This document shows, piece after piece, positions 1 through 38,675 of a DNA stretch of 64,000 nt (position 1 is the stretch's first letter; every line of letters begins with the position of its first letter). The translations under genes and the position numbers were made by a program. The notes below the pieces were generated by a model. It was not told the origin of the DNA. It searched no databases and was given only the letters and a program-made list of their open reading frames with translations. Source of the DNA: Euglena gracilis (lineage: Eukaryota); the NCBI GenBank assembly GCA_039621445.1, contig CP154954.1:9116634-9180633 (forward strand), written 5' to 3'.

Positions 1-42
1 TTTGAATTTTACCCGATTGGAACAGAGGTTGGGTGAAAGAAC

Positions 43-3000
43 TTGTTCGGAAGGCAACAAAAAAGTTGTATTTTACACCTGGAAAAGCTTTTTGAGGTCG
101 ATGGGAAACCAATGGGGGGTGTGATGTGTGGAGTTTGGGCCTTGTTGATAGAGGGTAATAAGCCCCCCGCCAACACTAGCAACCCGAAGAAACCAAAGGT
201 GGTACATTTGAAATCACGGATGGTTAAAAAGAGATACCCAACCACAGGTATTGAGAAATTTTCCAAGGACCGACAACTTTTGATTCGGACAAGGGTTGTT
301 TTGGGAAACGGGGAAGAACAAAACATGGACGTTTTGGTAGACACCGGTGCGGAGGTTAACCTCATAAGGCAAGGGTTGGTGAGTGAGCACCTAATGTATT
401 CGGCCGAACACCCCTTGAGGTTTGAAACCGCTGACGGTCAAGCCTTGAGTGGTGGGTGGAGGTGCACTAAGGTGATCATGAAATTGCAAGGGGAGGTGAA
501 CGATAATACCCCACCCACAGATTTTGGGTACGATGTGGAATTTTATGAAGCCAATATCAAAGTGGACGCAATTTTGTCATACCCATGGCTTGTGCAAACA
601 AAAATTGGAATTTTTCCACATCATCGTGCTTTGGTAGTGGAGGAACCCAAGTTGACTTTTTTTTTCGGTGTGAGAGATCAAAGGAGAAAACGACAAGGAA
701 AAGTCCCTAACACACTACCCCAAAGGGGGGGGGGTGACAAATTTGGAAAAGTTTGGTTTCCAACTTCCTATGGAGGGTTTTGATCAAAGGGGCCAAGCCT
801 TGGACGAACACTCGCTCTAAATTTTGGGAAACAATTTGGAGATTGCAAAGGAAAACCCCCTACCAATTCACAAAATGATTATTGCAAGGGAGGGGGAGGG
901 GAATAATGAAACGGAATCCAAAGAGGAAGAGAGAATAAGTGAGCTAAGAGAGGATATTTTTGGAAGGTATGGTGGAAGCGTATTTCGGTCTAAGGTACAA
1001 CCCGACCCACCCGTAAGAGGACCATATGGTTATGTATTCATACCTTTGCAAGAAGGAGCGCGGTCCACCCGACAAAAACCATTTTTCATGCACGGGGAAC
1101 GAAAAGAAGCTTTGGAAAACATCACTGAAGATTGGATCGATGTCAAATAATCGAGCAAGCCACAACAAAAAATTCAGAATGGCTCTCACAAACTTTCCCC
1201 GTGCCCAAAAAGTCAGCCGATTTTCCTTGGAGGGGGGTTTTTGACATGACGGGACCCAACAGCCAATCCCGTAGATGCAACTACCCTCTTCTGAAAATCG
1301 AAGACATCCTGGTGAAGCATGGCGCAAACCAAATGTTCTCCATTTTGGATTTAAAACAAGCCTTTCACCAACAGCCGCTTCACCCGGATAGTAGGCCTAT
1401 AACTTGCTCCTTCTCACCAAAGGGTCTTTACCAATGGAGGGTAAATGTAATGGGGTTAACCAATGCCTCACAACAATTTCAACAAATGATGGATGACCGT
1501 ATTAGCACCCGTAAGGGATATTGCTACCCCATACATTGATGACATTTTGGTATGGACCACCTTCGGGGAGGGGGAGGATCTCCTCGAGGCACACAAAAGG
1601 GATTTGTGTAGGGTGTTGGATTTACTCGCGAGGAAATGTTTGTAGTGGACTCAAAAAAAGCGGAATTATTCATCAAAGAAGTGGAATTTTGTGGCCAGAT
1701 TTTGGGGCATGGCATGCGTCGGCCGGCCCCCGGCAAATTACGTGCCATTGAAAAATGGGAGGTTCCAACCACCATAGCGGCCTTAAGGGCTTTCCTCGGC
1801 TTCACAAATTATTACGTGTAATCTCAAGTTGCGGCACCTTTGCAAGATAAGTTGAAGGTGTCTAGGGAGGAAGGCAAGAAAGGGAGCAAAAAATGGGTTG
1901 AATTCGGGGAGGTTGAACGCAAAGCATTTGAGGTGTTAAAGCAACGGTTGTGTTCCGGATTAATTCTTCAAAGGGTAGACCCCGATAAACCCTTTGCTTT
2001 GAGAGTTGAAGCGAGTGGGTATGCCGTAGGAGCAACTTTAGAACAACTCAAAGAAGGAAACGGTACGCCCACACCCCAAGATATTTTGGACAAGAAAACG
2101 GTGCCTGTTGCTTTTATGTCCCGAAAACTCACCGAGGGGCAAAGAAAATGGACCCCCCCCCCCCGGGAATTGGAGACATATGCCATAATTTTGGCACTCC
2201 AAAAATGGGAAAGTTGGATTGGTCTCCAACCCTTTTTGGTGTTGACCGATCACCAAAGTTTGGAGGCATGGGCAAAAGAAGTGCTCGACACCCCAAGTGG
2301 ACCGGTGGGGAGGAGGGCACGATGGCACCAAATTTTCTCAAAATACGATTTGACAGTGGGGTATATTCCGGGGAAGGAAAACACCATTGCCCACATTTTA
2401 AGTCGGTGGGCATACCCTGCTTCGCAAGCTCTAAGGGACATTAGTAAACATGGTTCGGCCGAAGATAAGAGGGAAATGGAGGAGCTCATAAGAGAGGACA
2501 TGGAAGATGAGAAAAATTGCTTGTTGGTCAAAGTCAAAAATCAGCCTAACGCTCGTAACTTGTGGATATGGGGGGGGTAACGTGCAGTGGAAAAGAGGTG
2601 GCACCTAATTTTGTGGATGATGCATCAGGGAGGGGGCCCGAGAGTGTCGAAAGTCCGGGAGGAACAAACACCACCGAAGACACTCACTCACAAGGGCCTA
2701 GGAAGGAAGGGTAAGAGGAGAGTTACCTTTTGGGTGGAGTGGACCCTGCGGGAAATTTGGTGACCAGCCCAAAACGTCCGACTGATGAGTTACCGAAGGG
2801 GGGAACGGGAGAAGGTGCGGCCGCGCCAACTCCAAGTGCAACCCCTAAGCTAACAAAATCAGTTTTGGGGGAGAGATTGGGAGGTTGCGTATACCGAATG
2901 CCCCACTTGGAGGGAAATTTGGCAAGCAACACAAGAAAATGGTGAGTGGCCAAAGGGGGTGAAAGTGCACAAAAACCAAATCTTTTGGGAAGAGAAGTTG

Positions 3001-10700: not shown

Positions 10701-13700
10701 TGCGCTCCGCGGCCTTCTCCTCTCGGATCTGCTGCTCCATCTCCTCGGCGTCCGCTGCCGTCCCGTGCCAGCAGGAGTCTCTGTACTCCTGGCTGGCCGG
10801 GTACGCCCACCGCGACAGCGCGTCCCCCACCTCGTTCTTCTCCCCCGGCACGTACACCACCTCCACCATGTGCTCGTTGAGCTTGGAGTGCCACCTCGCC
10901 CGCCGGCCCTGCGGTCCCGCTCCTCGGGCGACGTGCTCCTTGTACCAGCTCTCCAAGGACCGGTGGTCCGTCAGCACCAGGACCTTCTGCCCGGTGATGT
11001 AGCCGCCCACTTGTCCAGCGCGCTCACCACCGCGTACGTCTCCTTGTCCCGGGTGTCCCACCGCAGCCGCTGCCCCTCCGTCAGCTTCCTGCTCATGAAG
11101 CCCACCGCCACCGACGCCCCGGGCTTCAGGAGCTCCTCCACCGATGGGATGCCCTCCACCTTCGGCAGCTGCTCCAGCACGGCGCCCACCGCGTAATCGG
11201 AGGCGTCCGTGCGGAGCACGAACGGCTTGTTCATGTCCACGTGCCACAGCTCCAGGTCCGCCACCAGCGCTGCCTTCAGCTTCTCGAACGCCTCCAGCTC
11301 GGCCGCGGACCACACGATGGGGTGCTTGCTGCCCGCCCGGGACAAATCCCGCGGTAGCTTCAGCTTCTCCTGCAGGGGGGCGGCCAGCTCCGAGTACATA
11401 CGTACATACCCCGAATAATAATTGCAGAGGCCGAGAAAGGCGCGCAAACTCGTCACATTGGCCGGGGGTTGCCACCGCTGCACCGCCGCCAGCTTGCCGC
11501 TCGCGGGCACGCGCTTGCCCTCCCCCAGCACGTGCCCCACGAACTCCGCCCTCTTGCGGAACAGCTGCGCCTTCTTCTTGTCCGCCACCCACCGATCCGC
11601 CTCCAGCGCCCGCAGGGTCTCCCGCAGATCCCCCGCGTGCCGCCTGATCAGCTCCTCGTCGCTCCACCCCGGCAGCCGCCTCGTGCTCACCAGGATGTCG
11701 TCGAAGTAGGGGTGGGTGTGGGCGGAGACGTTGCGGCAGGTCGCGTCGATGTCCCTCTGGAGCAGCGCCGGACCGACGTTGATGCCCTGGGGCACCACGG
11801 TCTACTGCCAGAGGCCGCCGGGCAGGTGGATGTTGGTGATGGGTCGGCTTTCCTCCGCCATGGCCACCTGGTGGAAGGCGTCCCGCAGGTCCACCGTCGA
11901 GAAGATCTCGCACTTCGCCTGCTCGCTCACGATGTCCTCCGTCAGCGGTAGGGGGTAGGAGTCACTCTGCAGCATCTTGTTGGTCAAGCTGTAGTCGCAC
12001 ACCAGCCTCCACTTGCCCGACTTCTTGCGGATGGGGAAGGCGGCCGCCCTCCACGGCCCCCGCCCCGCCTCCAGCTTGCCGTCCGCCAGGCACTCCCGCT
12101 CCATCTCCCTCAGGGCCTCCAGCCGCTCGCCCTTGAGGTTGATGATCCGGCCCACCACTGGGGTTGCTCCCGGCTTCAGCTCAGCACTGCCTTCCCATGG
12201 GTGCCCCGCGCCGGGGGACACGGCCAGACCCGCTCACGGAACACCCGGCCTTCGAACTCGTTGATGATCTCGTCCCGCAGCTGCCGCGCCAAGGGATGGT
12301 CGACATCATCTTCCGTCTCCACCACCCCTCGCACCGCCTTCGCCGCTTCTTCGGCCTCCTTCAGCATCATCGCCACTTCTCGGACTGCTGCCTCGTCCGT
12401 GGTCAGCTGCCGCATCTTCTTCACCGTGGAGAGGTAGCCGTCCAGCTCGTCTTCGTCTTCATCATCATCTTCCTCCTTCTTCTCTTCGTCTCCACGCCGC
12501 CTCAGGATCCACTTGGGGTCCGCGTGGAGCTGCAAGGTGTCGTGCCATGCCTCGATATCCTGCCGGTCCTCCCGGCGCCATCGATACCCCAGTATCAGAT
12601 CCGTGCTGAGGCAGCCGTCGTACGCCACCACCTTCGTCGTCCACGTCCTCGGTCTCCGCTCCGTCGTCGGTCTGGGCCGCGAAGGACAGCTTCAGCTCTG
12701 CTTCTCGTTGTCCTCCGGGTAGTGCTTCTCCGCTCACCGTGCGCAGCACCAAGGGTCTTGTTGCCGCGTGGAACACCGACTCCGGGAACAGCTCCTTCTT
12801 CACAAGGGAGGTCTGCGCCCCCGTATCGATCAAGGCCTTCGCCTGGATCTTCATCCCGCCTGCCTCCACCTCCACGTCCATCAGCAGCTGGTAGCACCCC
12901 CCACGGTGCTCCATCCGGCCGACCGTGAACGGCCGGTTCGGGAGGTGCTGCCACGGTCGCACCACCACCTTCCGCACCTTCTTCGCCTCCTCCGCCGCCG
13001 CCACTTCTTCCCGTGCCTTCTCCCCCAGGCACAGGTACCGCACCACTCCCTCCGGGATGCGGTAGGCCTCCTCCCTTGTGCACCTGCGCTCGCCACCACT
13101 GCCTCCCAGCTGTAGCCGATGTCGTCGTACGCCGTCTGGTCCTTCCACCATGCTGCCGCACTTCCCACCACAGATGACGTCGTCCAGCTCCTTCGCCATC
13201 GCGTCGCTGACCCAGAAGCGGGTCGGATTGCGATACCCGTACTCCGCGAAGCGGCAGTAGTCGATATCCACGTACCGCACTCCGCGCAGGACTCGTCGCC
13301 ACCGCAGCAAGCCGAACCTCGGGTTTTCAATCCACCAGCGCGTAGGCGCCAAGTACTCCACCAGCTCCCTCGTGGCCTTCACCACCGCGTCCGCCATGCG
13401 GAGCCTCCTCTTGCGGGTGGTGAGGGCTGCGGAGTACTCGGTACAGGGCGGGGACGCCGCGATGACCTCGAAGTAGCCGGGAGCGTACTGTTCCCAGTAC
13501 CTCCACTTCCTCACGTCGGCCACGATGTCCGGCTTCCACTTCTCGTCCCAGTCCACGCTGATCACCTTGAAGCCCATCTTCTCCAGCGCTCTTCTGACAC
13601 TGCCCGTTCCGGAGAACAGGTCCAGCGCCCATCTTTCCTTCTCTTCCTTCGCCGCCTTCTTCACCGGCTCTTTCTTCTCCTTCTTTGCCGGTGCTTTCTT

Positions 13701-19489: not shown

Positions 19490-19935
19490 AATAATCCAAA
19501 GAAAATTTGATAACGCTTTAAACTGGGGTTTCTCCTAAGGAAATTGTGAACCGATTTATTCTGTATTTGTTTCCCCTCCAATATTTTCCTGAGCAAATCA
19601 TGCAAAGGAGGGGCCACCTGGGGTGTGGCATTTTCTCCCCCCTGCAATTGGTGAACGTGCCCTTGTAGGGGCTTATTTTCAGGCAGGGGGTTCCTGGCAC
19701 TTTCATCTTTATTAATTGGGGCCACCATGTGGCTGAATACGAAATGGGGGTGACAAATAAAACTTTAGACTGGGGAAACATTCTCAAGCGTCGGAGAAAT
19801 TTCTGAATGATTGACCAAGGGGGGTTTGCATAAAGTCCCCCCGTGTGGACATGTGGCCATGTGGACATGTGGACATCCCATGTGGACATGTGGACATAAA
19901 GTCCCAGGGGACATTGGAGGGCATCCACTGCCCTG
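19490..19935 (-). pseudogene. Remnant of a second, diverged DIRS family (methyltransferase-like domain)
   Basis: GLYANPPWSIIQ..WWPQL..FTNCRGEKMPHPRWPLLCMICSGKY aligns by eye with the DIRS MT C-terminus at 40140-40390. Confidence 0.8.
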
Positions 19936-20169
19936 GCCTCACAGTGGGACCATCTGGCTACAAAATTGGGCAGTTTTTTGTTGCCTGGGGAGGCAAATAA
20001 AAAATTGGTTCGGCTCAAAACAAGAATGTTGAGGGGGACGAAAACTCGGGGAGGAGCAAAGAAATTCGGGGAGGACAGACAACTTCGTACTCCCTCGAGG
20101 AAAACCGACAAGGGAGGAAGGGACACCGAGGGCGAAGCACAAAGACCTTGTGACCCGAGGTGTCTCTGT

Positions 20170-20600
20170 TGAAAACGCAGATTGGGTTGGCAAATGGGGA
20201 GGAAAAAAACAGCCAGAATTTTGATTGACACAGGAGCTGAGGCAAACCTCATTCGACAAAGGTCGATAGGGGACCACCCAATGTATCATGCCAAGAACCC
20301 GTTAAGGTTTGAAACTGCCAAAGGGCAAACGTTGGCGGGGGGTGAGCAGATGTGTTAAGGTGAAAATGATCCTTCAACAAAACTTGAATGAGGAAAGGGT
20401 CGGTGTGTCGGTGGGGTATGAAGTTGAGTTTTATGAGGCAAATACCAAAGTTGATGCAATTCTTTCTTATCCTTGGTTGGCGGAGGCAAAACTGGGAGTT
20501 TTTCCACACCACAAGGCGTTGGTGAAAGACAGCCCCGACCTGATTTTTTTTCGCGGTGAAGAAAGACGGAGGAATCCGCAAAAATTCCGGATGAGACAAA
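20170..20600 (+). pseudogene. Gypsy aspartic protease remnant related to 43-783
   Basis: ILIDTGAEANLI ... GYEVEFYEANTKVDAILSYPWL..GVFPHHKALV, frameshifted. Confidence 0.85.
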
Positions 20601-20751
20601 TTTTTCGGTGGACAATGCGACTGCGGAGGACGGGCCTTCGTTTGGGTTGAAAAAACGTGGTCGTTGTTTGCCATTGGAGGGGTTTGGCCAGGAACTGCAA
20701 TTTTTGAGTGATGAGGACCAAAGGGAGGTTGCCACAACTTTGGAGGGAAGT

Positions 20752-23700: not shown

Positions 23701-24502
23701 TGGCTGCCATAGCCCTGATTCTGGGCCCCAGGCCCTGTCCAATGATGGCTGCCATAGCCTTGATTTTGATTTGAATCCTTTGGATTTCTGATATTTCTTG
23801 AGAGGCTGCCATAGCCTTTGCTTTTTCCCCTGGAAGGGGGGGGGGACATAGAAAAAGGGGAGGAGTCTGTTGGACCTGTGATGGTCTTCCCCTTCTGTCT
23901 TCTTGTCCTCCTGACCACAGTTGTCCATGTTCCATGGCCATTCTCATGTTGAGAGGGGGATTTTTAAATCGCTGATGGTCTGGGGGGTGGGGGGTTGCGA
24001 TGGCCACGGACCGGTGTGCTGCTGCCGCCCCTCCAGCTTCTGCAGCTGCTGCTGTGTCTCCACCTTCCCCAGCTTCAGCTGACTTCTTGGAAGTTCTTTG
24101 AAGTTCTGCTTGAAATTCAGAGTTTCTTTGAAATTCATTATTCATGGAAGTCCAGTTGTTGATCTCTGTTGTGGCAATTGCAATACTTTTGGGAATAATT
24201 GGAGTTGAACTCGAAGAGTTGAATTCTTCCGTCAGGAAGTTGAAGTTCCGAAAAAATTCGGTCCACCAGTTGGTCAAAGTGATGGTCTTCGGGAAAGTAG
24301 TACTCCTCGTAAAATAATTCCACTTGAACTCGTAAAAGTAAAACTCTTTCTCCTTGAGGTCGAAGGGCAGAAATAAGAATCAGCCAACTCCGGCAACAAA
24401 AAGCAGTAAGAAGCACCCCCCGCGCACGCACAAACACAAAACAGAACAGCCGGCAAGGAAAGCAGGACCTCACCACCTCGCAGTGCGGAGCCCGACTGGT
24501 CC
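20752..24502 (-). mobile_element. DIRS retrotransposon copy 1 (3'-truncated within the tyrosine recombinase)
   Basis: Closely similar to 37135-40910 in reverse orientation. Left ITR at ~24380-24502; RT-RH-MT ORF at 21322-23928; YR cut after LQRKGWQF. Confidence 0.93.
21322..23928 (-). CDS. DIRS RT / RNase H / adenine-MTase-like ORF (copy 1)
   Basis: KIDLKDAYFH and YLDD (RT); FSDSS, HINQKEL, HVDSQVA, LADSLTR (RH); VDMFC..YANPPW (MT). Confidence 0.9.
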   Translation of the reverse strand: MDNCGQEDKKTEGEDHHRSNRLLPFFYVPPPFQGKKQRLWQPLKKYQKSKGFKSKSRLWQPSLDRAWGPESGLWQPSSKRAVGPSARLWQPVSKPGQIPLGKGMSNLPHSSLKHKPLRSCPSKQAAPLSGEGQWRSLYPRGQWRPGGKYQGQWRPFQSKSGGHGRPMHSRPQPLGGGPRLAQTSPPQKIISPALYVPPHCRHRPSPIFQTQGESLSLSSPMAGPEVTPVMGQPELTPVIGQPGGRTPVMGPLESPDTLHPGVPPYRALQASIPHWVEAGASTEVLNLIREGVRADLPLPPQMSLKVPFKTPQEIRTAQKILREYECAGATRQITPQEAKHFVPYFIISKKEGEKTKERLISDCRQLNLHFTPQKFRLEHMGNIFPYLRKGWFCGKIDLKDAYFHLKLHSSLKKHVCMQVGGETWQFQAACFGISSLPQKFMTLMRVWERKWRKEGKVVFIYLDDILLLAPSKKTAAQHLAEVKTDLLLAGFRLNLPKSCLEPTQEIKNLGQWINLKKGQLQIPQEKLKSLRKELGKVLTAQKMSCRKLSSIVGQVRSYLVSMPFLRILTDQLCKMVDLHTKWGWDHTLTIPQGVKDQIVELKAFLQPGVGRAFQSQASQELFSDSSTWQWGGLDKASGQKVQDFWRDLRVLHINQKELQAAVETVKALAKPKQTIVLHVDSQVAVSYLTKWGGKKPYLNSILKPLLYHCQEKQINLQVVWVPTKEQLADSLTREQKDPGDYTLNLNIFHQIVQFFRKEITPEVDMFCTPSNKKFPKFVCRYPHQGALLVDALKADLMGLPPVYANPPWSIIPQWVQGLMLNPDLICLLIVPHLASTSWWRQLMSIRQPGSKVLPVPPQWGLFTNCWGE

Positions 24503-24930: not shown

Positions 24931-26061
24931 TGTTAAGTCCTAAGGCGGAGGGACCTTCGGTACCTCCGTTTCCCCTAGGTTGCGTAGGATCGATTAACCT
25001 ATCCGGCCTCGCATCCCCTCTTGCCTGAACCCAGCCACCCATTTCTAGATCCTCCTCCCCAACCCAGATCCCTTTTTTCTGGCAACCCAGCACACCGCCA
25101 TAAGGAGGTGTCGCTCCTCCCGCCGGCGCTTCTTCCCCATTTCTTTTGCCCTCTTGCGCATTTCCTTTTTTAATTGGAATTCCATTCCCTAAAATTAAAG
25201 AAACAATTGCACAAAAAGTGGAGGACATTGAAGAAAGTACTTGCGGGGTTGTTCGAGGTGCGAGGGTAGGCGCGACGTGCACTTCAGGCTTGTCAACACC
25301 CAAAACTTGAGAATCCCAATAGTATTGTCAAGTAACCACAAAGATAAACCACAACAATCAGATCCACAGATTGAATTGGCAATAATCAATTGATCCAATG
25401 ATGTGGCCCAAAAGAAGACCCACCTGAGATTAGAAAGGGGGGGAGTAGGCACAACCCTTTCCTACCGCGCTGATTGCGCGCTTTTCTGGGTTATCTTCCC
25501 CACACCCATCCCAGGTATGCGCGCCCGGCTCCCTGCCGGGCGCTCACCACCACGCTCCCCAAGGCATGGTGTATTCAAACCCCCAGGTCCATAACCCTTT
25601 GCGCTCACACTTCCCCAACCCAAAATTTGGAGTTGCGTGGGCTTGCGTCCCTTCCCACACCCATTGCCGCTTTTAGCGTATAAAAATTGCCCCTTGCCTC
25701 AAAAAATGGCGCATGGGTCCAAGCGGCGCCTTGGGCGTCTAAGGGAAGTATTGGGTAAAGGACCAAACTGATGTCGGAGAGAAAAAAGGGGGGGGCGTCC
25801 GTCTTGCGCTCCCCCTAAAAAAACCAAAAATACGCTTTGCCGACCAATCAAAATATGACCTCCGCCCTTCACCTTGGGGGGGGGGGGTTGGTCGACTCCG
25901 CACAAGTCAATCCGCGGGCTTAGCCTTCTCCCCCACCAAAAAACCACTCCTTTCCCTCACAAGTGGTCGAGGGGATTCACCACCCGGGTTATTTCCCATT
26001 CAACCGACCGCTCGGCACGGCCGGCGTCCCAAAGGGCAAAAATACACCTCCGGTCCCAACA
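24931..26061 (-). repeat. 3' LTR of element B (~1130 bp)
   Basis: Matches 36282-37134 plus 41776-42054. Preceded on the minus strand by GAGTAGGGGGG. Confidence 0.94.
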
Positions 26062-27374
26062 CCCCCCTACTCAAGAGATTTGCCCGCAAATCTCCGATTG
26101 CCAGTCCCTTTCCTCAAAAAAAGGGAGACCGGAGGGTGTCCAACCGAAAAGGTTTCCTAAACAAAATCTCCCGCGGAAAAAGGAGAAGAGAGGAAAAAAA
26201 AGCGGGGGGGGCGAAGGGCTCAAAGTGGTCGGCGACCCACAAAATTCCCCTCACCTCCCGAGACGTCCCCTTCCACCCACTCAAATCTTGAGGCATTCTC
26301 ACCAACCCAAGCACTCAATGGGCGTCCTCAGGGGAAGTAATAAAAAAACAAAACAAAAAAAAACCATCACGACTTCCGGAGTCGGTAAAAAAAAACCACA
26401 CGGTCGAACTAGGGCGCATGCGAGCGCCCCCGACCCTCGGTCTCCTTCTCCCCATTCGAAGAACATGGGAAGAGGTGAGGGACCCGTGCGCATTCACTCC
26501 ATCGATTCCTTCCCAAGGGAATCCGACCCGGAGTGAAAAAAGAGAAGAGGGGGGTGAACCATGGGTCGTCCATCACGCCCATGCCCTTTCCCCCTCCCGA
26601 TCACCCTTGGATTCTTCAAAGGGCTTCCACAATCGGTTACTCCCCTTCGAAAAAAATTCAAAAAAAATCGGTAAAAAGAGAAAAAAGGGGGGGGGCGGTG
26701 TGAACCATGGGTGCCCCTCCTTCACGCCCCACGTCACCACCCCCTTCCGACCACCTTTGGATCCATCAAGCGGTCGGCCTCCCAAAAATTCAGCGGAAGG
26801 ACCTGGCGGGGGGGTTCATAGGGTCCCCTTGTTCATCACCCCCCTTGCCTCAAAAATTCGCAAAAATCAGGCAAAATGGCAGGGGGGGGGTTCACAGGGT
26901 CCCACTCGCCGTTTCCTCCCCTTGCCATGGAAAATTCTGAAATTGACGAAAAATGCATGGGGGGGGGGCGTGTCGTGGGTTCCATCATCAAAATTACCCA
27001 CGCTTCGATCCCCTTCAAGACCCCACCCTTACCCATTCAAAAAATGGGTATACTTCCGACATTCCAAAAAATTCTTTGGTCCAAAAAATGAAGAAAAAAG
27101 AAAACGGGGGGGAGGGGCATGGAATTCCCTGGGACGTTCGGCCCACCTAACCCCATGCTTCCCTCGCCCACGCCACAACGGGCGGGCGCACCCGTCCCCG
27201 GGCGTCACCCGCTTGGGAACGCCGCGTACCGTTCGAGGACGTCCTCGGCGGCGATGCGACGCCTCGACCTGTGACGCAAAAAAGAAGAAAAGAGGGGGGG
27301 GCACGGAATTCCCTGGGGTGTTCCGCTAACCCCACACCACGCTCCACCCACCCTTCACACGCCACAGCCATGAC

Positions 27375-30300
27375 TTAGGGAGAGTTCAAGAACCCCTCCC
27401 TTTGCCCAGCCAAATCCGAACGGGCGTAGGTGAGTGGAAAGGACTCCCCAAGGCTTAAGTCCCACTTACACACCTTGAGTTGATCCGCATGGACATCTAA
27501 ATGTTGCCCCCCCGAAATTTTGAGTCGGTAGCTCGAGGCTCCAACCCGCCCCACAACTTCAAATGGACCTTGCCACCATCGCTCCATTTTGTTTCCCCCA
27601 ACCGATCTTGGTTTGAGCAACCACACCCATGATCCAAGCTCGTATGGGGGGGAAGCCTTTCGACCCCGATTGATTCGGGCTTGGACCCTCGCATGTTCCT
27701 CATTCAAGAGTTTGGAAATTTTCTCCTCCAAAGTTTTCATGCGAGTCAAAAAATCATGGGCTTCGGGACAATCTTGAATGGGGGTGTAGGGCAATCCCGC
27801 CAAACTTCGATCCCTCCCAAAAACCAATTGGTAGGGGGTGTACCCCGTTGGATCGGCCAAATCGTGTTGAAGCCGCAAGGCCCGGGGTAGGGCTTCGACC
27901 CAATTCACCCTTTCCTCCATGTGTAGTTTCCTTAGGATTCCTTGGAGGATCCTTCCACACAACTCAGCCCGCCCATTTGCTTGGGGGCGGTGTGCTTGGG
28001 AATATGCCCTCCTTATTCCCAATCGACTACACATGGTCACCCAAAATTGAGACACAAATTGGGGACCCCTATCGCTGGTGATCACACTCGGAATGCCCAT
28101 TTCTCCCCAACTCCCATCAATGAAGAGATGAGCCACCCGTTCCCCGGTGAGCCCTTTCTCAACACTTGGCCGAGCCACCATCCAACCGGTCAAACGGTCC
28201 ACACACAAAACATAACAATTGAATGTGTGTCCCAACCACGTGACTTCCGGCATGGAGAAAACATCCATACACACGTGGGACCAAAAATGCTCGGGAATTG
28301 GAGTGAATTCAATGGGTCTTTTCATGGACCAATTCGGGGGTCCACACGCTTGACACACCAAACATTCTGTTTTCACCTTCTCCACCACCTTTTTCCAATT
28401 GGTGGTGGTCGGTAGAAAATATCGGCGCTCCATTTCGGTGACCAACCGATCCACGCCCAAATGCCCCATGGCAATGTGGTGCTCTCGTGTGACAACTTCC
28501 ACCCGATTTTCCGGCACACACAGCCTGTCCCCCTTGTACATTTTTCCATCAAAAATCCGAATGCCATTTGGCCACTCCTCCCCTTTGGACTTGGTTTTTT
28601 CCAATCACTCGCCCAAAATTCGGATTGATCATACAAGCTTGACCAATCTTCATCCATCACATGTGGACGAAATTTCGACCTCCCCCCCCTCGGATCCACG
28701 GTGGTGGTGGGCTTCCGACCCGTGTCGCCGAGGGGTCTCCCCTTCCCCAACGAAGAGGGGGGGGCTCGAAAAGAGAATTTTCTGGGCTCTCCAAGGGGGG
28801 TTCCCATAATTCCGGGTCGAACCCCAACCCTTTCATCCGATGAGAATTCTCCATCACCAAGACACTCCATGGCCGAAGAACTTTCCCCTCCCACATCCTC
28901 TTCCAAGGCATCCCCTTCTCGAGAGGGAGGGGAGGGATTAGGAGAGTGAGGGGAACACACCTTCTCTCCTCCTCCTCCTCGGCACTTTCTCCTTCGTCGT
29001 CCCTCGGTCCCACCTTTGCCTCCTTTCTCGGTTGGGCTCGTGGAGGGGATTCCCGAGGGGGTTCAGATGCCCACCTCTCTTGCATCTCCATCCATCGCCG
29101 TTGGATCGGCGGTAGGGGCCGAGGCTCCTCGGGCTCCATCTTGGATTCCCTCTCCACTCGCCATCGATCCGGTACCCGTGGGTGAGGTTCTCCAAGATTC
29201 CTTCTCAACTCCTTCACTTGCCATTGTCGATGGAGCGGTGGCGGGGTAGTAAACTCCTCCCGACTCCTCCTCAACCCCTGATTGGGGGGATTGCTCATCG
29301 GCCTGAGGTGGCGAGGGGGATGTTGGAGAGGAGGTGGTGACACCCGACCGGGTAACCACCCGTACATCCGTTGCCCCCCCCACCATCAATATCCCCCTTT
29401 TCCCCCCGGATTCCCGCCGAATCAAGCCCACCAAGCCCCTTTCCATGAGTTCCCCCTCCATCATGGATTTCACTTCCTCCCGGGCTTCCAAGCTCCCGTG
29501 GAAGCTTACATCCTCCCATGCGGAGCTCGCCGGGTAGGCATATCGTGACATGGCATCCGCCACGATATTTGTGGGGCCGGGGACATAAACAATCTCTAGG
29601 TCGAACTGAGATAGCGTTTCGTGCCATCTCGCTCGCCTTCCTCGGGGACCCGAGGGGGTGTCGACATGTTCGGTTACCCAATCCTTCAACGCCCTGTGAT
29701 CTGTCGTGATGATCACGGGTTGGAAGCCAATGTAGCTCGCCCATTTCCTTAGAGCAGCCAAAATGGCATAGGTCTCCTTTTCACGGGGAACCCAATTCAA
29801 CTGGCTCTTGGCCAACTTCCGTGAAAAGAAACCCACGGGCACGAGTCGACTCTTGCCGACTTCAATCCCCGAAGATTTTTCCTGCTCCTCGGGGTGAAGT
29901 TGCTCCAAAACGGCACCAATGGCAAAATCACTTGCATCACACCTCAAAACGAATGGACCATCCGGGTTGATTTGGAAGAGCTCAAGCTCCTCCTTCAATT
30001 TTTCTTTCAACCGATGAAAAGCCAAGACTTCCTCCTCGGTCCAATCCAACTTTTTTTGAGATCCCTTTCTCCCGTCATGCCGATTCAATCTCAACTTGGC
30101 CATGAGGGGGGCAGCAAATTCAGTGGTGAACATACTCCGAATAATGGTTTGTCAAACCCAAAAAGGCACGAAGTTCGGTCACCACCTTTGGAAGCCCCCA
30201 CCCTTGGACCGGTAAAAGCTTTCCTGGGGAGGGGCTCCTTCGACCCTCCCGCAAAACATGCCCACAAAACTCAACCTCCCGCATGAAAAAGTGGGATTTT

Positions 30301-32780
30301 TCGGGGCTACACACGAGATTGTTTTCCTTGAGGCGTTGCAAAACCCGCCTCACATCTTCGGCATGATTTTGGAGAAGCTCCTCCTCCGTTTCCCCCGTGG
30401 ATCCAATAATGATGTCGTCCACGTAGGGATCGACACCGGGAAGTTCTCGCAAAACCCATTCCATCATCCGTTGGAATTGGGCATTTCCATTTTTCAACCC
30501 CATCACCAAAACTTTCCATTGCATGGTGCCCCGGGGGGTTGACATGCAAGTGATGGGTCGGTGCTCCTTTTTCAATGGCATTTGGTGATAGCCATCGGTC
30601 AAATCCAGCACCGTCCAAATTTTGAACTTCCCTTGTCTTTGGAGGATGTGAGAAATTTGGGGGAGGGGATGCCCATCTTTCAGGGTTGCAAGATTTTGGG
30701 GCCTCAAATCCTGCACAAGGCGATACTTTCCCGGGGTTTTCTTGGGTACCGGAAAAGATGGGGTGTTCCACGGACCCGAACCGGGCTCGACCTTCCCCAT
30801 TTTCAAGGCCTCATCCACAAGATGTTGATGAGCCTCCCGTCTCTCACCCGTCATGTGATAGGGCTTTTGACTAACGGGTTTGGCACCCTCCCTCAACCAA
30901 ATTTCGGCTTCCCCGTGTGGACCTCTCACGGGGGGATCTCGAGGGCAAACCCCAGAAAGCGATGAATCCCGAAATTCTTCAACAATCTCCTTTTTCAGGA
31001 CTTCACCGAGGGGGTCTTGGGTCTCCCCCCTCACCTCAATCGCACCCTTCACAAAATTCACATGGGCTGACGCCAAAACCATGTGTTTTGCCACTTCACG
31101 GATGACATCCTCCCCCTCATCTTCCATTTCAAAATGGGCACCCGGGCTGGCCGAAAGTCGCATTATTTTCACCATTTCGACTGCTTGGCGCATTTCCGAT
31201 GGGTCAACCGGAGAATCACCCTCCCCGAAAAAACCATCTGGACACCCGGGCATTGGATCCACCAAATTTTCATCTTCGGATTCCTCGTCCGAAGTCAAAG
31301 GTTGGGGTGAGTCCAAAACACGGTCCCCCCCCAAAACTCTTTCCTTGCCATCGGAGGTGAAACCACACACATATTCCACCAATCGGTAAGGAATACGATA
31401 GGTGAGCTCCTTTTTTGCACTCCCATTTGCCCCACCAAGCTTGGCCTTGTGTGCTCGAAGCTTGTTTGGGTGGTTGGGATCCTTCTCAACCAAATTGGGG
31501 CATGTCGAGTGATCGCAAACGACATTGGGTAGTGAAAGCAAATGCGGACTCCCAAAAAATCTGGTGGGTTTTTGATACCCCCACCTTTCAAATTGGCAAT
31601 GGTCTGCATCCAAAACTGGAAATTTCGCCAAAAGAGCATGCCGGGCAAGGATTCCCGTTCGGGGGGTCTCCAACCACCAAACCTTGGGTCTCAAAAACTT
31701 GATAATCTCAAGCGTTTTTCGCACCAATGCCAGAGCCGGTCCCAACCGTCTCGGCCTACGGCTTAAGGCCAAACTGAATTCGGTACAGGGGGGGCATGCG
31801 GTCACAATCTCAAATTCACCCGGGGAAAAACTTTTCTCGTAATCCCAGGTTGAAATATCCACACACAGGGTGGGGTCCCACTTTGAATCCACATCCACGG
31901 ATATCACGTCGTACCCGTGGTCCCGCAAAACCTTCCCGACACTTCCGGTGCCGGAAAAAAGATCCAAAGCTTTGGGACGAAAATTGTGGATCGCCTGAAT
32001 GGACACAGGGGGGATGGCTCGAATGGAATCTACGATGGTCCCCTTTCCGGCGAGGACGCCGCAAATCCAAACCGAACAACCATCAAAAAATCCTTGAACC
32101 CCGTGTTTTCTTGGCACCACATTCAAATTCCTTTCTGCCAACCAGACATAGGAGAGGATCACATCCTCCTCTATGTCGGCCTCGTATAAAAGTGTAGGAA
32201 TTTTCACCACAACCGCATTTTTGGTGTCCTGCACCACCCCTGAAAATTGCAATTCCACCAAGGCCTCATCCGACCCGCCCTTCACCCTTTGGTTGTTGGC
32301 AGCAACCAAGTTGACGGGTTTTGCCGATGGAGCGAAAAATGAACGGGGGAGCAAATTTCTTTTCACCAAGCAAACTTCTGCCCCCGTGTCGACCAAGGCC
32401 CGAACTTCCTGGGAACCACCCAAGACATCAATTTTGGTTGAAAGATGCAAATGGACCCCCTTCACCCACCCCGCTTTCAAAGCCATCAACCGCCACTCAC
32501 GCAAAACCTCCCGGATGGTAGCGCCATCCGAATTTTCAAGTGGCATCAAATTTTTCATTTCCATCAAAAGATGCTCCACTGCCTCCTCTTCCTCAGGCAA
32601 TGGTTCATCTGACGATGGTGCGGGTGGTTCCGATGAAGAGGACTCCGACATTGCCCCGATCACGTGGAGAGCGGCCATCACACGTGTCAAACAAGGGGGG
32701 GTTGAAGGAGACAAAACATCCCCCCCCATGGATGGGAGACTTGCATTTGCAGAACCGGCTCCCGAATGGCTCTGACCCCC
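27375..32780 (-). CDS. pol: Pol of element B: protease - C5 DNA methyltransferase - RT - RNase H - integrase (frameshifted near 30130 and 29060-28600)
   Basis: LVDTGAEV (PR); LDLFSGTG / ACPPC / LETP (MTase); LDLTDGYHQ and YVDD (RT); RCDASD, EKETYA, TTDH (RH); HHCC plus CMDVF / TSDRG / GRAE and WQGPF (IN). No chromodomain seen. Confidence 0.92.
31370..31975 (-). other. C5 cytosine methyltransferase domain in Pol B
   Basis: KALDLFSGTGS (I), SVDVD (II), TACPPCTEFS (IV), WWLETP (VI variant), YQKPTRFF (VIII-like), YRIP. In frame with PR and RT. Confidence 0.88.
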
Positions 32781-35700
32781 CTACTCAGAGGATTGGGCGA
32801 TGGGAGGAGTGTCTTTCACCCCCTTCGGCCCCTTCTCCTCCGACTTTGGAGGCCCACCCCCCCAACGAGCCTTTTGTGCAAACGAGCATTTTCTGAAGTC
32901 ATGGATGAACTCCCTGCCCGCCTTTTTGCATGTGAAGCACTCCCCCTTGGACGAAGGGGATTTTGCACTCGGGCCCTTTCCCTGGGAGGCTGGTTTCCCA
33001 CCCCACTTCTCCGGGTAGGATTGAGCCTTCGGCTTCCAAGATGATTTCCCTTTGGTCGGAGAATCTTTCTTGGTAGTTTCCCCCCCACCGTTCTTGGGAG
33101 GGTCATCAACAAAAACTCGCACTTTTGCTGGGGAGGGGGATTTTGGCTTTTCCTCCAACCCATATGCATTCCGAGTGGCAACATATTCCTGCTCCGTCCG
33201 CAGGAATGAGGTGACAAATTCAAAAATTTCATCACCCGTCATTTGATATTCATGACAGGTTGCAGAAACTTTCAGACCATCCATGAGGAACCCATCCAAA
33301 GCCAAGAATTGATCCCGTTCGGCTTTGTCGTGGCACTCAAACACATAACTCCCCACCCCCTCATGGTGTCTCGGGAGTCGGTGTCCAATCACCCCCCTCA
33401 ACTCCTGGAGAAACGGTTCACCCATGAGATTCCGGGGGAGGGAAATGCGAACCCACGGTTTGTCCCTCCTTTTTTTGGCCTGCTCAATCATCACCTTTTT
33501 TTGCAAAAATGGGGGCATCTTGCAGAAAATGAGTTGCCATTCCTCGGCATCGGTTCGGTCTTCCACTCGGTCCCTTTTGGCCACAAACTGCGCCTCAAAT
33601 TTCACCCAATCCAAAAGGGTGAGTTGTGCGTTGGGGGGACCCGAGCATTTGAGTGACACCCGATGCCAATCAGCCCTACTTTGTCTGAGGGTATCCACCC
33701 CAAACTCTCTCCGAAATTCTTCCCGAAAACTTTTGTAGGTCATGTTTCTGTCCCTACTCATTCGGGTTTTCAGTTTTAGGGATGTTGCCTCATCGAGGCA
33801 GCTGCGAAACTCCATCAACATGGCAAAATCGGAGAGATGGTAGGGGGAGGTTTCTTGGATTATTCTTTCCACCTCCTCCCATTTTCTTTCAAACTCGGGG
33901 GCATCTTGCACCAACCCAGAAAATCGAGGTTTTTCCATTTGTCGCCAAACCTCTTGCATAATGGGGTTCATTGGTGCCATTGCCATAAATCCCGGAACAC
34001 CTTGCCCCAAAACGTTGACATGGGTTTGGGGACCCATGCTTTCAAAATTGTTTGGGCTCGGTGCAAAAGAAAAAGGAGTGTTCATGGGCATGAAACCGGG
34101 AGGTGCTTGTGAGGGTTGAACAATGGGTTTTGGTGGCACCAGCCTTGCTGTGGTGGTTTGAGTTGAAGAACCACCATCCTTCGGGTTGTTCGCAAAAGTT
34201 GCACCCGAACTTTGACCCGAATCGCTGGTCCCCCTCCCCAAATCTTGCAACGGGGGGGGTCGCAATTCCCCCTTGCGTTGAATTCGCAAGGCTGCCATTT
34301 CTTCCCTCAACTTCAGAATTTCGTTTTCCAACTCCATCACCCGGGGGGATTTTCTTGCAGGGTCCTCGGGTTTGGGGTTGGTCGGGGGATTCATGCTATG
34401 GATGGGGGGGGGGCAATTCCACGGGTTGCCTCGGCACACCCGTGACCACTGGTGCTGGTGCAGCTTGCGGCTGTGGCTTTGCTGTAGAAGTCGTAGTACT
34501 TGTTGTACAGCTCGGCCGGGTCGGGAGCCCAGCCTCCTTTGGGGCCTTGGCCTCGACGGGGGCCTTGGCTTCGGTGGGGGCCTTGGTCTCGGTGGGGGCC
34601 TTGGTTTCTTGCCGTTGCTGCTCCTGCACCTTGGTGATGAGGGCCCCTACGAGAGGTTGGAGCCCCCCCAAGGCACCCTCCAATGCCGATGTTTTTTCAT
34701 GCAAGAACTGAACCTTCTGGGTCAAAACCCCCATGGATTCTCGCAAGATGGGTAGGTTTCCCATACCCCCCTCAACTTGCTCGATCCTTGCCCCCAAGGA
34801 TTGAATTGCAGTTTCCATGGCTGTCCCCATTTGAGCCACTTTCTTCTCCCCCAATTCCATTTGTTGAAAAATGTGGAGTTGATCCCGTAAACTCTCCTTT
34901 TGGATGGTGTCCATCAATTTTTTGTCCCATGAAGCATTCATGGTCTGCATTTCACCACCCATTTCCTCGGAAAGTTCTCTCCACATGACTTGGACTTCCC
35001 CCCGCACATCATCGAAAAGCTGATGCACCTCCTTCTCAAATTTTTCCATCCCCAACCGGAAGGAATCCATGGTTTGCCTTTGAGAAATGACCTCGGTCCC
35101 CAAAGATTGGACATTTTGGGCCCCCTCGCTCCCATGAGCTGAAAGGAGCATGGCCTCCCTAGCCCCCCTTTCCACCCGTTCCTCTACAGAGTGGATTTGG
35201 AGCTTTTGGGCCATACATTCAGCATTGGTATTTTGCACCAACGCCGAAAGGGTTGAAATGTCCCTCCCCCCTTTTTCCATCCGTTCTTCTACCGAATGGA
35301 TTAGGAGTTTTTGGGTTTGAAATTCGGCCCCTGCACTTCTCATCCAAGCAACCAACTCCTCGCACGAATTTCGCAAGGATTGGATTTCCTTCATGTGAAT
35401 TTCTTGGTTTTTGAGGAAATTTTCATTTTCCCTCTGAAGAACCAAAAGTGTGCCCTTGATCTCCGGCACAACTTGTTCAAACTTTGCCATGTAGGGGAAA
35501 ACCACCTTTTCCATGGCTTGAACACCTAAAAATGCTTGATTTGCAACCTCCCTTGCCGTCAAATCGGCAAAGTTTTGAACACCGGTTGCAGAACTTTCGG
35601 TGGGTCTTTCACAAATTTCTGGTACCTCCGGATCTTCGCTATGATAATCCGGGGGGTCCAAATCGGAGGGGTTTTCTTCCTCCATTGCCTCCCCCTCACC

Positions 35701-36268
35701 AGCTACCCTAATCATGCACACCCTAGCTACCGTGTTCTCATCCACGGTGATTGGGCATACAACGGGAGGTGGAGGAGGGGCACACCGATAGGGAGGGGGC
35801 TGGTCATAGCTCTGATTCGGCCAATTGCAAGGGCCCTTCGGGCCATCTTGGACTCTGTCTTGAATTGGTTGCCATTTGAAACCATCTTGATTGAGGAGCT
35901 GTGGACACGAGGGGTTTTCAAAGCCACAACCCCCGTCACAGCCGGAACCAAGGTCATGGGGGGCATTTTCAAAATCACCTCCCCCATTATGGCAGAAATA
36001 GTTGCTTTGAGTCCCGATTTGACCTTGCCCAAAAACCTCCCGAACTTCACCAACCAAAATCGGCTTGGTTTCTGTTCTGGAATCCTCTGAAGGATCGGTG
36101 TTGCTATTCACCGATTTGAGCAAAACTTTGGAGGGATTTTCCACTCCCCCCTCGAAATGCCCAAAGACAGTCTCTGTTAGGGATCTTGCAGGAAAGTTGG
36201 TTGAAAAGGAGAATTCACCACCACTCTTTCCATGGCTCAGATCACAGGGGGGATTCTCCGGACAGGCA
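32781..36268 (-). CDS. gag: Gag-like ORF1 of element B (one frameshift in a homopolymer near 34410; start uncertain)
   Basis: Coiled-coil-like N-terminal part, capsid-like RFSGLVQDAPEFERKW, and C-terminal knuckle-like CFTCKKAGREFIHDFRKC. Confidence 0.78.
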
Positions 36269-36281
36269 CCTCTGCATACCA
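36269..36281 (-). promoter_or_regulatory. Primer-binding site of element B (tRNAi-Met-like, 1-nt bulge)
   Basis: TGGTATGCAGAGG directly after the LTR end ..TTAACA. Confidence 0.75.
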
Positions 36282-38675
36282 TGTTAAGTCCTAAGGCGGA
36301 GGGACCTTCGGTACCTCCGTTTCCCCTAGGTTGCGTAGGATCGATTAACCTATCCGGCCTCGCATCCCCTGTTGCCTGAGCCCAACCACCCATTTCTAGA
36401 TCCTCCTCCCCAACCCAGATCCCTTTTTTCTGGCAACCCAGCACACCGCCATAAGGAGGTGTCGCTCCTCCCGCCGGCGCTTCTTCCCCATTTCTTTTGC
36501 ACTGGTGCGCACTAACATTCTCAATTGGAATTCCATTCCCTAAAATAAAAGAAACAATTGCACAAAAAGTGGAGGACATTGAAGAAAGTACTTGCGGGGT
36601 TGTTCGAGGTGCGAGGGTAGGCGCGACGTGCACTTTAGGCTTGTCAACACCCAAAACTTGAGAATCCCAATAGTATTGTCAAGTAACCACAAAGATAAAC
36701 CACAACAATCAGATCCACAGATTGAATTGGCAATAATCAATTGATCCAATGATGTGGCCCAAAAGAAGACCCACCTGAGATTAGAAAGGGGGGGAGTAGG
36801 CACAACCCTTTCCTACCGCGCTGATTGCGCGCTTTTCTGGGTTATCTTCCCCACACCCATCCCAGGTATGCGCGCCCGGCTCCCAGCCGGGCGCTCACCA
36901 CCACGCTCCCCAAGGCATGGTGTATTCAAACCCCCAGGTCCATAACCCTTTGCGCTCACACTTCCCCAACCCAAAATTTGGAGTTGCGTGGGCTTGCGTC
37001 CCTTCCCACACCCATTGCCGCTTTTAGCGTATAAAAATTGCCCCTTGCCTCAAAAAATGGCGCATGGGTCCAAGCGGCGCCTTAGGCGTCTAAGGGAAGT
37101 ATTGGGTAAAGGACCAAACTGATGTCGGAGAGAAAGACCATTCGGGCTCCGCACTGCGAGATGGTGAGGTCCTGCTTTCCTTGCCGGCTGTTCTGTTCTG
37201 GTGTGTTTGTGCGTGCGCGGGGAGTGCTTCTTACTGCTTTTTGTTGCCGGAGTTGGCTGATTCCTATTTCTGCCCTTCGACCTCAAGGAGAAAGAGTTTT
37301 ACTACTACGAGTTCAAGTGGAATTGTTTTTCGAGGAGTTCTACCTTCCCGAGAACCAATACTCTTACCAACTGGTGGACCGAACTTTCTGTGGAACTTCA
37401 ACTTCCTGCAGGAAGAATTCAACTGGAACTGGAAGAAATTCAAGAAAGAAGAACAAGAAACACAACAGATATCGACAACTGGATTTCCATGAAGAATGAA
37501 TTTCAAAGAAACTCTGAATCTCAAGAAGAACTGCAAAGAACTTTCAAGAAGTCAGCTGAAGCTGGGGAAGGTGGAGTCACAGCAGCAGCTGCAGAAGCTG
37601 GAGGGGCGGCAGCAACTAGCCAGTCCGTGGCCATCGCAACCCCCCCACCCCCCAAGGCTTCTGAGATTTTCAAATCCCCCTCTCAACATGAGAATGGCCA
37701 TGGACCATGGACAACTGTGGTCAGGAAGAGAAGACAGAAGGGGAATACCATCACAGGTCCAACAGACTCCCCCCCCTTTTCTATGTCCACCCCCTTCCAG
37801 GGGTCAAGACAAAGGCTATGGCAGCCTTTCAACAAATCCAAAGGATTCAAATTATCATGGCTATGGCAGCCATCAACAAAAAGGACCTGGGGTCCAAATT
37901 CAAGGCTATGGAAGCCATTACTCAAGAGGGCAGTGGGCCCAGGGGACAGGCTATGGCAGCCAGTACCCCAACCTGGAAAGAGCCCATTGGGGAAAGGTGT
38001 GTCCAACTTTCCCCCCAGCAATTTCAGACACAAACCCCCCAGGAGTGGCAAGCCAATGCCAAGAACAGGCCATGGTGGCCTTTATGGGAAATCAAGAGGG
38101 ACAGAGAAGAGACAGTCCCAGAGAAAAGGCCAATGGAGGCCAAGCAAGCCTGAGAGCCAAGGGAGGCCAGAAGGCAAATGGTGGCCAAGCAGGCCTGAGT
38201 GCCAGGGGAGGCCAGAAGGCAAATGGTGGCCAAGGCAATCACCACATCAGCCCTTGGGGGGGAGGCCCAAGATTGGCTCAGACAGGCCCCCCCCAGAAGA
38301 TAATCAGCCCAGCCTTGTATATACCCCCTCATTTCAGGCACAGACCTTCCCCCATCATTCACAAACAGGGGGAAAGCCTGTCTTTGGAAAGCCCTATGGC
38401 AGGGCCAGCTACAGCCCCAGTGATGGGGCAACCAGGGGTGACCCCAGTGATGGGGCAACCAAGGGGAAGGACCCCAGTGATGGGGCCTGTGGAGTCCCCA
38501 GACACATTACACCCAGGGGTACCCCCTTACAAAGCCCTGCAGACCAGCATCCCCCATTGGGTCAAGGCAGGAGCCAGCAGAGAGGTATTAAACCTGATAA
38601 GGGAGGGAGTTATGGCAGATCTTCCCCTCCCCCCTCTAATGTCCTTAAAAGTTCCCTTCAAATCTCTAGGAAGTA

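Follow-up and report, generated by a model that had tools for sequence, protein, structure and literature searches.

Element B is a Ty3/Gypsy long terminal repeat (LTR) retrotransposon on the minus strand of a 64,000-nucleotide stretch of Euglena gracilis DNA (contig CP154954.1, positions 9,116,634 to 9,180,633; hereafter the window), in which it occupies positions 24931-37135 with 12.2 kb between the outer ends of its direct repeats. The element is probably a slightly decayed copy of a multicopy Gypsy family carrying a compact C5-cytosine methyltransferase (MTase) between the protease (PR) and reverse transcriptase (RT) of Pol, such that the MTase (the C5 module) entered the lineage once and then diverged together with RT, and the residues Glu-Thr-Pro (ETP) in motif VI mark a clade. 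PR, MTase and RT of element B share one open frame of 886 amino acids (aa) at 30120-32780 on the minus strand, and are placed by Pfam and by hidden Markov models (HMMs) built for this analysis (own HMMs) as follows, with the MTase of a second Gypsy element of the window, element A, given for comparison:

32139..32453, minus strand: aspartic protease of element B with the motif LVDTGAE (Pfam RVP, E 3.6e-5; own PR HMM, residues 110-214)
31332..31988, minus strand: compact C5-cytosine MTase of element B, pol residues 265-483 (own HMM)
30123..30806, minus strand: reverse transcriptase of element B with the motif YVDD, the C-terminal part of the 886-aa frame (Pfam RVT_1; own RT HMM)
13011..13667, minus strand: MTase of element A, upstream of its protease (own HMM and translation)

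The protease matches Pfam RVP at residues 122-195 of the 886-aa frame with 24.4 bits against a cutoff of 20.7, while the RT matches RVT_1 at residues 678-842 (E 1.8e-26). An initial annotation, made from the sequence of the window, had read the motif strings LDLFSGTGSV, PPCTEFS, KPTRFF and YRIP in this part of element B, and all of these, together with WWLETP, are present in the minus-strand translation of 31370-32420, a range that includes the MTase in full and the greater part of the protease. The same annotation held the domain to be homologous to that of element A, which is borne out by BLASTP with 92 of 218 residues identical (42%, E 1e-52), a similarity that by this alignment lies far beyond chance. 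In element A the C5 module and then PR follow one another in one frame (12465-14165), and the translations and own HMMs confirm that the slots differ, with C5 before PR in A and between PR and RT in B. Within the window the own C5 HMM matches A and B only.

The MTase of B is unusually small (~220 aa) with a reduced target-recognition region, and carries motif I as FSGTG, the catalytic Cys of PPC at 31785-31787 and the Glu of ETP at 31668-31670. A single-sequence search of the sequences in the PDB returned nothing significant (three matches at E 0.35-0.98). With a profile built from 39 relatives DNMT1 was matched at E 7e-5, and the alignment pairs motif I of the two, PPC with GPPCQ in motif IV, and ENP with ENV in motif VI. 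Structure prediction, which had been suggested as a check on the presence of an MTase fold, gave a confident AlphaFold2 model when built with the alignment of relatives (mean predicted local distance difference test score 93.9, predicted template modelling score 0.89) and whole-domain structural matches. The best Foldseek matches to the model were DIM2, DNMT3A/B/C, M.HaeIII and DNMT1 at E ~1e-7, with VIA-align giving Z scores of 14.0-14.7 over 189-204 aligned residues against DNMT3, M.HhaI and DNMT1. Residues 6-220 of the model match residues 628-907 of DNMT3A and 10-321 of M.HhaI, which are the entire catalytic domains including the C-terminal helix of motif X. DNMT3 gave the top VIA-align Z at only 14-16% identity, with M.HhaI within one Z unit of it.

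The conservation of catalytic residues extends well beyond the window. In all 57 aligned retroelement MTases the residues P75, C76, S80, E115, P117, C139, T150, C166, C171, H188 and P208 are the same, while motif I has F19 in 54 of the 57 and G21 in 53, the remainder being gaps or one D. All 57 retroelement rows and 10-11 of the 11 viral ones have the PPC motif. In these residue counts P0162 and P0163, which cluster with the viral P0106, are treated as viral, and in the 68-row C5 tree described below as unknown. The four residues C139, C166, C171 and H188 lie in the reduced recognition region and may form a zinc site. In motif VI the Glu is invariant (57/57) and the third residue is Pro in all retroelement rows, with Asn (35 of the 57) or Thr (22 of the 57) between them, and Asn at this place in all 11 viral rows. 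The contrast of ETP with ENP that had been drawn between the two elements is accurate, A reading WWIENP and B WWLETP. The 22 rows with Thr (T116) are exactly those of the smallest well-supported clade of the C5 tree that holds B, with a support of 96 in the Shimodaira-Hasegawa-like approximate likelihood ratio test (SH-aLRT), and on this evidence ETP would mark a clade and not damage in the element B copy.

The trees of MTase and RT domains omitted P0161 and P0136 (from the same elements as P0139 and P0158), P0156 and P0157 (partial, with a weak C5) and proteins covering fewer than 200 positions of the RT profile or 180 of the C5 profile. In a C5 tree of 42 domains the MTases of retroelements group as a single clade, separate from nine stand-alone viral forms (support 100/99), with the forms having C5 after PR, including B, making up a derived group (94/91) and those having C5 before PR, including A, a basal grade. 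The retroelement clade was recovered again in the 68-row C5 tree (SH-aLRT 98). In a quick RT tree of 122 rows, A and a third Gypsy element of the window, element C, fall in a clade of 28 rows (support 97) together with every element showing C5 before PR, and B falls in a clade of 73 rows (99) in which C5 sits between PR and RT. The mapping of MTase position onto an RT tree, proposed in the initial annotation, could thus be carried out with public proteins, and the PR-C5-RT slot proves to be inherited through a large clade: across the 67 of 122 rows that could be scored, the other 55 lacking coverage of the PR-RT interval, 'C5 between PR and RT' changes twice on the RT tree compared with 16-27 times (mean 22) in 200 label shuffles, a statistic that shows inheritance and not a rate, as related rows share labels.

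Public data also bear on the B family. Public contigs of four runs were aligned to 27300-34700 in 30 bins, and all 30 bins of B were covered in three DNA runs, with 2441 contig pieces in run X3 alone; the B family is highly multicopy. Among the deletions listed, those in the MTase are of small depth only, for instance one missing base (43 of a depth of 16069 in X3) and a gap of 1592 bases with a depth of 133. The majority differences listed for the MTase are one synonymous change and one Gly to Glu change at a variable column, and four of five checked majority differences in the PR-C5-RT frame are synonymous; contig depth itself cannot rank the parts of a gene. Absence or degradation of the MTase in other B copies, named in advance as a possible refutation of the proposal, was not seen, the contigs of the three DNA runs spanning the MTase without common deletions, and these data support, without proving, that B-family copies keep the MTase domain. 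The suggestion that the module belongs to a family-wide system and is not an accident is strongly supported by the common occurrence of fused MTase-RT polyproteins, the identity of catalytic residues in 57 of 57 rows, the inherited slot and this contig coverage. In run X15 a contig of depth 152 joins 34439 to 29301 (minus strand), skipping 5137 bases. The skipped part starts with GT and ends with AG on the sense strand and the joint occurs in none of the three DNA runs; a spliced subgenomic RNA could account for it, as could a copy with a deletion, X15 being only guessed to be RNA.

Beyond the 886-aa frame the features of element B are as follows:

36282..37135, minus strand: 5' LTR, 854 bp (blastn of both LTR copies)
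36265..36281, minus strand: putative primer binding site, starting TGG immediately 3' of the 5' LTR (read from the sequence)
34396..36281, minus strand: upstream open frame 'ORF0' without known family (open reading frame (ORF) list and Pfam)
32784..34646, minus strand: gag-like open frame with a Cys-His knuckle (CFTCKK...H...C) near its C-terminus (translation)
32781..32783, minus strand: single TAG stop between the gag-like frame and pol (codon and context read)
30119..30123, minus strand: frame break between RT and RNase H (tblastn frame switch)
29603..30124, minus strand: RNase H domain (Pfam RT_RNaseH, E 7.6e-25; its frame spans 29063-30151)
29063..29065, minus strand: in-frame stop private to the element B copy (ORF list; a sense codon in the contigs of all four runs)
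27375..28604, minus strand: integrase with H2C2 zinc domain, rve core and SH3-like end, in a third frame (Pfam; tblastn for the frame)
24931..25784, minus strand: 3' LTR (blastn)

The order LTR, gag-like, PR-C5-RT-RNaseH-integrase, LTR fits the Ty3/Gypsy layout of paired LTRs with PR-RT-RNaseH-integrase. The two LTRs are 98.1% identical over 854 bp with 16 differences (blastn). As defined by blastn the LTR ends in CA and does not start with TG, such that the boundaries are perhaps off by a few bases, and with these ends no matching target site duplication of 4-6 bp was found in the flanks. ORF0 is a stop-to-stop frame of 760 aa (34396-36678) that extends into the LTR and has a weak match to the DUF1388 repeat as its sole Pfam match, while the gag-like frame matches no Pfam family. 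Neither a chromodomain (Pfam, E<=0.01, five ORFs) nor a Dam domain (PF05869 by Pfam in its ORFs; a Dam HMM in all six frames) was found in element B.

Alignment by tblastn of four long intact relatives places the pol of element B in three frames. Relative to the window, contigs of all four runs have a 5-base insertion at 30121 (depth 2762 of 3023, 95 of 107, 13.7 of 13.7 and 7.7 of 7.7), and both this break and the stop at 29063-29065 are private to the element B copy or to a few copies. A further break lies just upstream of the integrase, with a 1-base insertion near 28594 in a minority of the contig depth. The statement that the MTase is retained in frame therefore holds for PR-MTase-RT, which is one frame, but not for the whole of pol in this copy, whose downstream part is interrupted by frame breaks and an in-frame stop.

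The relatives of B are numerous and varied in their architecture. A search of a collection of 5.8 billion proteins with the MTase gave 159 near-length matches among 410 candidates, and fused MTase polyproteins were represented by 34 matches of 487-1551 aa among 1018 candidates in the same collection. With the RT of B as query there were 159 matches at E<=1e-20 among 1885 candidates, the relatives being taken from the best 120 of the 159; representatives from a 50%-identity library numbered 2900 at E 1e-3, 1231 at 1e-10 and 124 at 1e-30. Nearly all matches are unnamed metagenome proteins. Two proteins filed under Genlisea aurea, P0132 and P0155, are partial polyproteins of order DAM-PR-C5 that are 52-56% identical to the B MTase, and probably stem from a protist living with the plant and not from G. 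aurea itself. When Pfam and own HMMs were combined, at least 10 orders of C5 and Dam-like modules were found among the relatives. These include PR-C5-RT, DAM-PR-C5-RT, PR-C5-DAM-RT, PR-DAM-C5-RT and PR-C5-RT-DAM with C5 after PR, and C5-PR-RT, C5-DAM-PR-RT, DAM-C5-PR-RT and C5-PR-DAM-RT with C5 before it; RT-C5, PR-DAM-RT and PR-RT were also seen. Many relatives are truncated gene calls, and the lack of an N-terminal module in these does not show that the element is without it.

Outside retroelements the nearest kin of the B MTase are stand-alone genes of viral type. A scan of metagenome DNA returned mostly such genes, with only L100-L103 reaching 46-48% identity and no additional complete element gained, and the nearest clusters in the ESM Atlas are of 213-219 aa with viral labels. 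A scan of IMG/VR with a single protein as query gave no matches, while an alignment of eleven stand-alone relatives of 190-230 aa gave 262 coding matches among 382 candidate stretches. Over the full 220 aa the stand-alone IMG/VR relatives show 33-38% identity, and they have ENP, KxT and the Cys set in common with the retroelement forms. They are free genes whose start is the first residue of the domain, with no retroelement context, and the best 80 loci have a median GC of 31%, many on contigs of 23-28 kb. At one of two scanned loci the MTase adjoins a primase-polymerase with a helicase domain, accompanied by a glycosyltransferase, and at the other an N6/N4 DNA MTase lies near the C5 MTase; eight of the 13 neighbouring ORFs scanned at these two loci matched no family. 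As a guess, the contigs with compact MTases belong to small viruses of protists. Prokaryote assemblies gave 19 matches, and all nine with E<=2e-22 are in metagenome bins. Four contigs of one bin labelled 'bacterium' (L082, L083, L085 and L087) each carry a stand-alone compact C5 MTase, with a phage-type tail-fibre chaperone domain near one of them, and this bin may hold viral DNA.

These observations can be drawn together in a proposed history and mode of action. A single entry of the C5 module into this Gypsy lineage is the most likely course, its nearest kin outside retroelements being the stand-alone MTases of small low-GC viral contigs, and the module would then have diverged along with RT. 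The order of A, with C5 before PR, and that of B, with C5 after PR, would be old rearrangements fixed in two deep RT clades of a large Gypsy radiation, across which C5, often accompanied by a Dam-like adenine MTase, appears to sit at varied places in Pol. In element B the gag-like frame and pol adjoin in one reading frame with TAG alone between them, and no variation at this TAG is present among the listed contig-variant rows. The TAG is followed by a G-rich stretch (window 32760-32810, minus strand), a context which we take to resemble that of readthrough in murine leukaemia virus. The MTase could be synthesised within a Gag-Pol product that arises through readthrough at the gag TAG, and be either freed from or held by the particle, where it would methylate cytosines of the new DNA copy of the element or of the DNA near the insertion. 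By this means the element might enter a genome heavily marked with 5-methylcytosine (5mC) already bearing the mark.

Several observations weigh against the account of an inherited, functional MTase given here and have to be set beside the evidence for it. The element B copy is unable to make RNase H and integrase in frame. Most relatives classed as PR-RT, with no C5 between, start at PR, such that proteins lacking C5 and truncated ones are indistinguishable. As a sign of self-methylation, CpG depletion in B is no different from that of the window, the observed/expected ratio being 0.66 in B, 0.65 in the window, 0.82 in A and 0.25-0.35 in the DIRS-like elements described below. Enzyme activity of the B MTase is itself a prediction from the model and the conserved residues, and it is quite improbable, although arguable, that in the B lineage the domain has ceased to be a methyltransferase and has become a binding or structural module or a decaying relic. 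The usual motif VIII of C5 MTases is QxRxR, and in B it reads KPTR. Loss of activity would also be in keeping with the change of Asn to Thr in motif VI, with the downstream breaks in pol and with scores below family cutoffs, Pfam PF00145 giving 19.6 bits for B (residues 301-371) and 17.7 for A against a gathering cutoff of 22, and NCBIfam dcm giving 15.9 bits against a cutoff of 100.65. Against it, 22 of 22 ETP rows retain the catalytic Cys and the Glu, together with the glycines of motif I and the Cys/His set, the ETP clade has diversified widely both with and without Dam, the model is confident and complete, and several relatives exceed the PF00145 cutoff with 24-34 bits. That the enzyme acts on RNA, like DNMT2, or on the RNA-DNA hybrid of reverse transcription and not on double-stranded DNA is highly improbable. 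The MTase does adjoin RT in the polyprotein, its recognition region is very small and DNMT2 is among the Foldseek matches at rank 19, but the best fold matches are the DNA enzymes DIM2, DNMT3, M.HhaI, M.HaeIII and DNMT1, and the stand-alone relatives lie in viral DNA contigs, one of which encodes the N6/N4 DNA MTase nearby.

The remaining points against the account come from the trees. In the free C5 tree the MTases of RT clade II, to which B belongs, do not form one clade and instead fall in two groups, each beside some clade-I MTases, with a log-likelihood 26.7 better when the topology is free; some exchange of MTases between lineages is possible. Separate arrival of the MTase in the lineages of A and B, whether through capture from outside on two occasions or through recombination of Gypsy RNAs packaged together, would explain this pattern, and would be consistent with the placing of A and B in different deep RT clades, with the occurrence of Dam and C5 in at least 10 orders among relatives and with the repeated transfers of Dam between elements inferred in a preprint (10.64898/2026.05.21.726589). 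Such an origin nevertheless seems rather unlikely. When the 31 clade-II rows were held together against the 18 others, the approximately unbiased (AU) test did not reject a single clade-II C5 clade (p 0.107), the group having been defined by the RT tree but chosen once the C5 tree had been seen, and on the RT tree no more than two changes of slot occur. Two outside captures in particular are not supported because the retroelement MTases form one clade apart from their stand-alone viral relatives. As to the congruence of MTase and RT trees, raised in the initial annotation, co-divergence at the deepest split is not rejected by the AU test, and the free C5 tree splits clade II. Of its two proposed origins for the module, relocation within Pol agrees with the at least 10 orders observed, while capture twice from outside does not agree with the single retroelement clade (100/99 and SH-aLRT 98). 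Taken together, the trees favour one entry into the Gypsy lineage followed by old rearrangements.

The two other Gypsy elements of the window and the DIRS-like elements that flank B give this history a local setting, with the following features:

4758-5396 and 18037-18677, minus strand: LTRs of element A, 99.5% identical, 641 bp
6..116, plus strand: end of a Dam-like domain, with which the truncated 5' side of element C begins (59% identity to residues 417-450 of P0143, tblastn)

As had been noted, A and B differ in their LTR ends, in internal GC (68.7% in A and 53.0% in B) and in the presence of a chromodomain in A only (PF00385, E 1.7e-7). Element A (4758-18677, minus strand) has an in-frame stop and a frame change inside RT, and contains a very GC-rich internal tandem-repeat block of 1.6 kb at ~5720-7370. 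The stretches starting TGGTA after the 5' LTRs of A (~18020-18036) and B (36265-36281), both on the minus strand, are very similar despite the different RT clades, which suggests that A and B use the same primer tRNA. Element C (1-4329, plus strand) retains a protease at ~277-591 and decayed pieces of RT in several frames. It had been reported, over 43-4329, to lack an MTase between PR and RT, which is correct for C5, but the tail of a Dam domain is present at its cut start. The element is cut by the window edge inside this domain such that any C5 of C would lie beyond the edge, and its RT is 85% identical to that of P0143, a polyprotein of order C5-DAM-PR-RT; element C is thus probably also a member of a lineage that bears MTases.

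A Dam HMM built from nine relatives and run on all six frames of the window matched the edge of element C (frame 37-780, plus strand) and the DIRS-like elements at 38670-40433 (plus), 21325-23943 (minus) and 19521-20285 (minus), with no match in element A. The DIRS-like elements flanking B (21322-23943, minus, and 37493-41647, plus) carry RT, a Dam-like domain and a tyrosine recombinase, and the immediate flanks of B (23573-24501 and 37136-38045) are an inverted pair, 85% identical, that are parts of these DIRS-like elements. In the DIRS-like region at 20173-20647 (plus strand) two short frames match the Gypsy protease HMM (E 8e-14 and 3e-8) and are probably a fragment of a fourth Gypsy element. 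Of 36 further ORFs of the window, 35 matched no Pfam family, the sole match being the RT of a DIRS-like element; none of the 32 scanned ORFs of >=90 aa in 42400-64000 had a Pfam match, and Rfam found no RNA genes in the 64 kb.

Retroelements with a DNA methyltransferase of their own invert the picture of methylation as a weapon of the host against transposons. Here three related Gypsy elements with different module orders lie side by side in one window, and by the evidence of public data this arrangement is of long standing, takes diverse forms and is under constraint. Ready comparisons for the role of self-encoded methylation are offered by the naturally occurring ENP and ETP clades and by elements with C5 only, Dam only or both modules. 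More tentatively, B could represent an undescribed branch of a large 'epigenetic' Gypsy radiation of microbial eukaryotes, in which a compact and probably zinc-bearing C5 MTase, acquired from small double-stranded DNA viruses that infect protists, has long been carried and moved among at least 10 Pol positions together with a Dam-like module, B having shed Dam and the chromodomain, kept ETP and perhaps employing a spliced subgenomic RNA and retrovirus-like readthrough.

The closest known systems are the EpiLTRs of Cymbomonas tetramitiformis and Euglena gracilis, described in a preprint as LTR elements with Dam, DNMT and chromodomain (Fernandez-Moreno et al., bioRxiv 10.64898/2026.05.21.726589, May 2026). 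In its available text the DNMT of the Cymbomonas EpiLTR lies at the 3' end of pol, and the DNMT module common to both species is placed as sister to DNMT4 and distinct from Gypsy-DNMT3 (10.64898/2026.05.21.726589). The Euglena genome is reported there to be heavily 5mC-methylated, with the engagement of host methylation proposed as an advantage to the element (10.64898/2026.05.21.726589). As described in that text, EpiLTRs resemble B in that they are LTR elements of Ty3/Gypsy type whose Pol contains a cytosine MTase. A Dam-like domain and a chromodomain are also found in many of the database relatives of B, and Dam-bearing DIRS-like elements of the kind that the preprint reports from Euglena adjoin B in the window. 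In contrast to the EpiLTRs so defined, B has neither Dam nor a chromodomain and so lacks two of the three features, while A, with a chromodomain and no Dam, lacks one. The EpiLTR screen, according to the same text, started from Dam, whereas B and A are Dam-less, and none of the 16 mentions of DNMT in the preprint text concerns elements with DNMT only, the PR-C5-RT slot, ETP or compact viral relatives. The likeness between the MTase of B and the EpiLTR DNMT is one of description and not of sequence comparison, with DIM2 as the first Foldseek match being a hint only. A literature search found no other description of such elements.

C5 MTases of other lineages have been found in several retroelements, as set out in the sections consulted of de Mendoza et al. 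(2018; PMC5890265). KnitGypsy-Dnmt3 of Klebsormidium nitens is, like B, a Gypsy Pol polyprotein carrying a C5 MTase, with key residues under purifying selection (PMC5890265); its module is a Dnmt3 of host origin, whereas the sequence relatives of the B MTase are compact stand-alone MTases of viral type. SymbioLINE-Dnmt and SymbioDIRS-Dnmt3 of Symbiodinium are multicopy retroelement C5 MTases, with two SymbioDIRS structures differing in domain order within Pol (PMC5890265), and these differ from B in being of other retroelement classes (LINE and DIRS) and other MTase lineages. De novo CG methylation has been shown for other retrotransposon DNMTs (de Mendoza et al., 2018). Retroelement C5 MTases are thus already known, and to these systems, as far as the sources seen describe them, element B adds the PR-C5-RT slot without Dam or chromodomain and the ETP form of motif VI.

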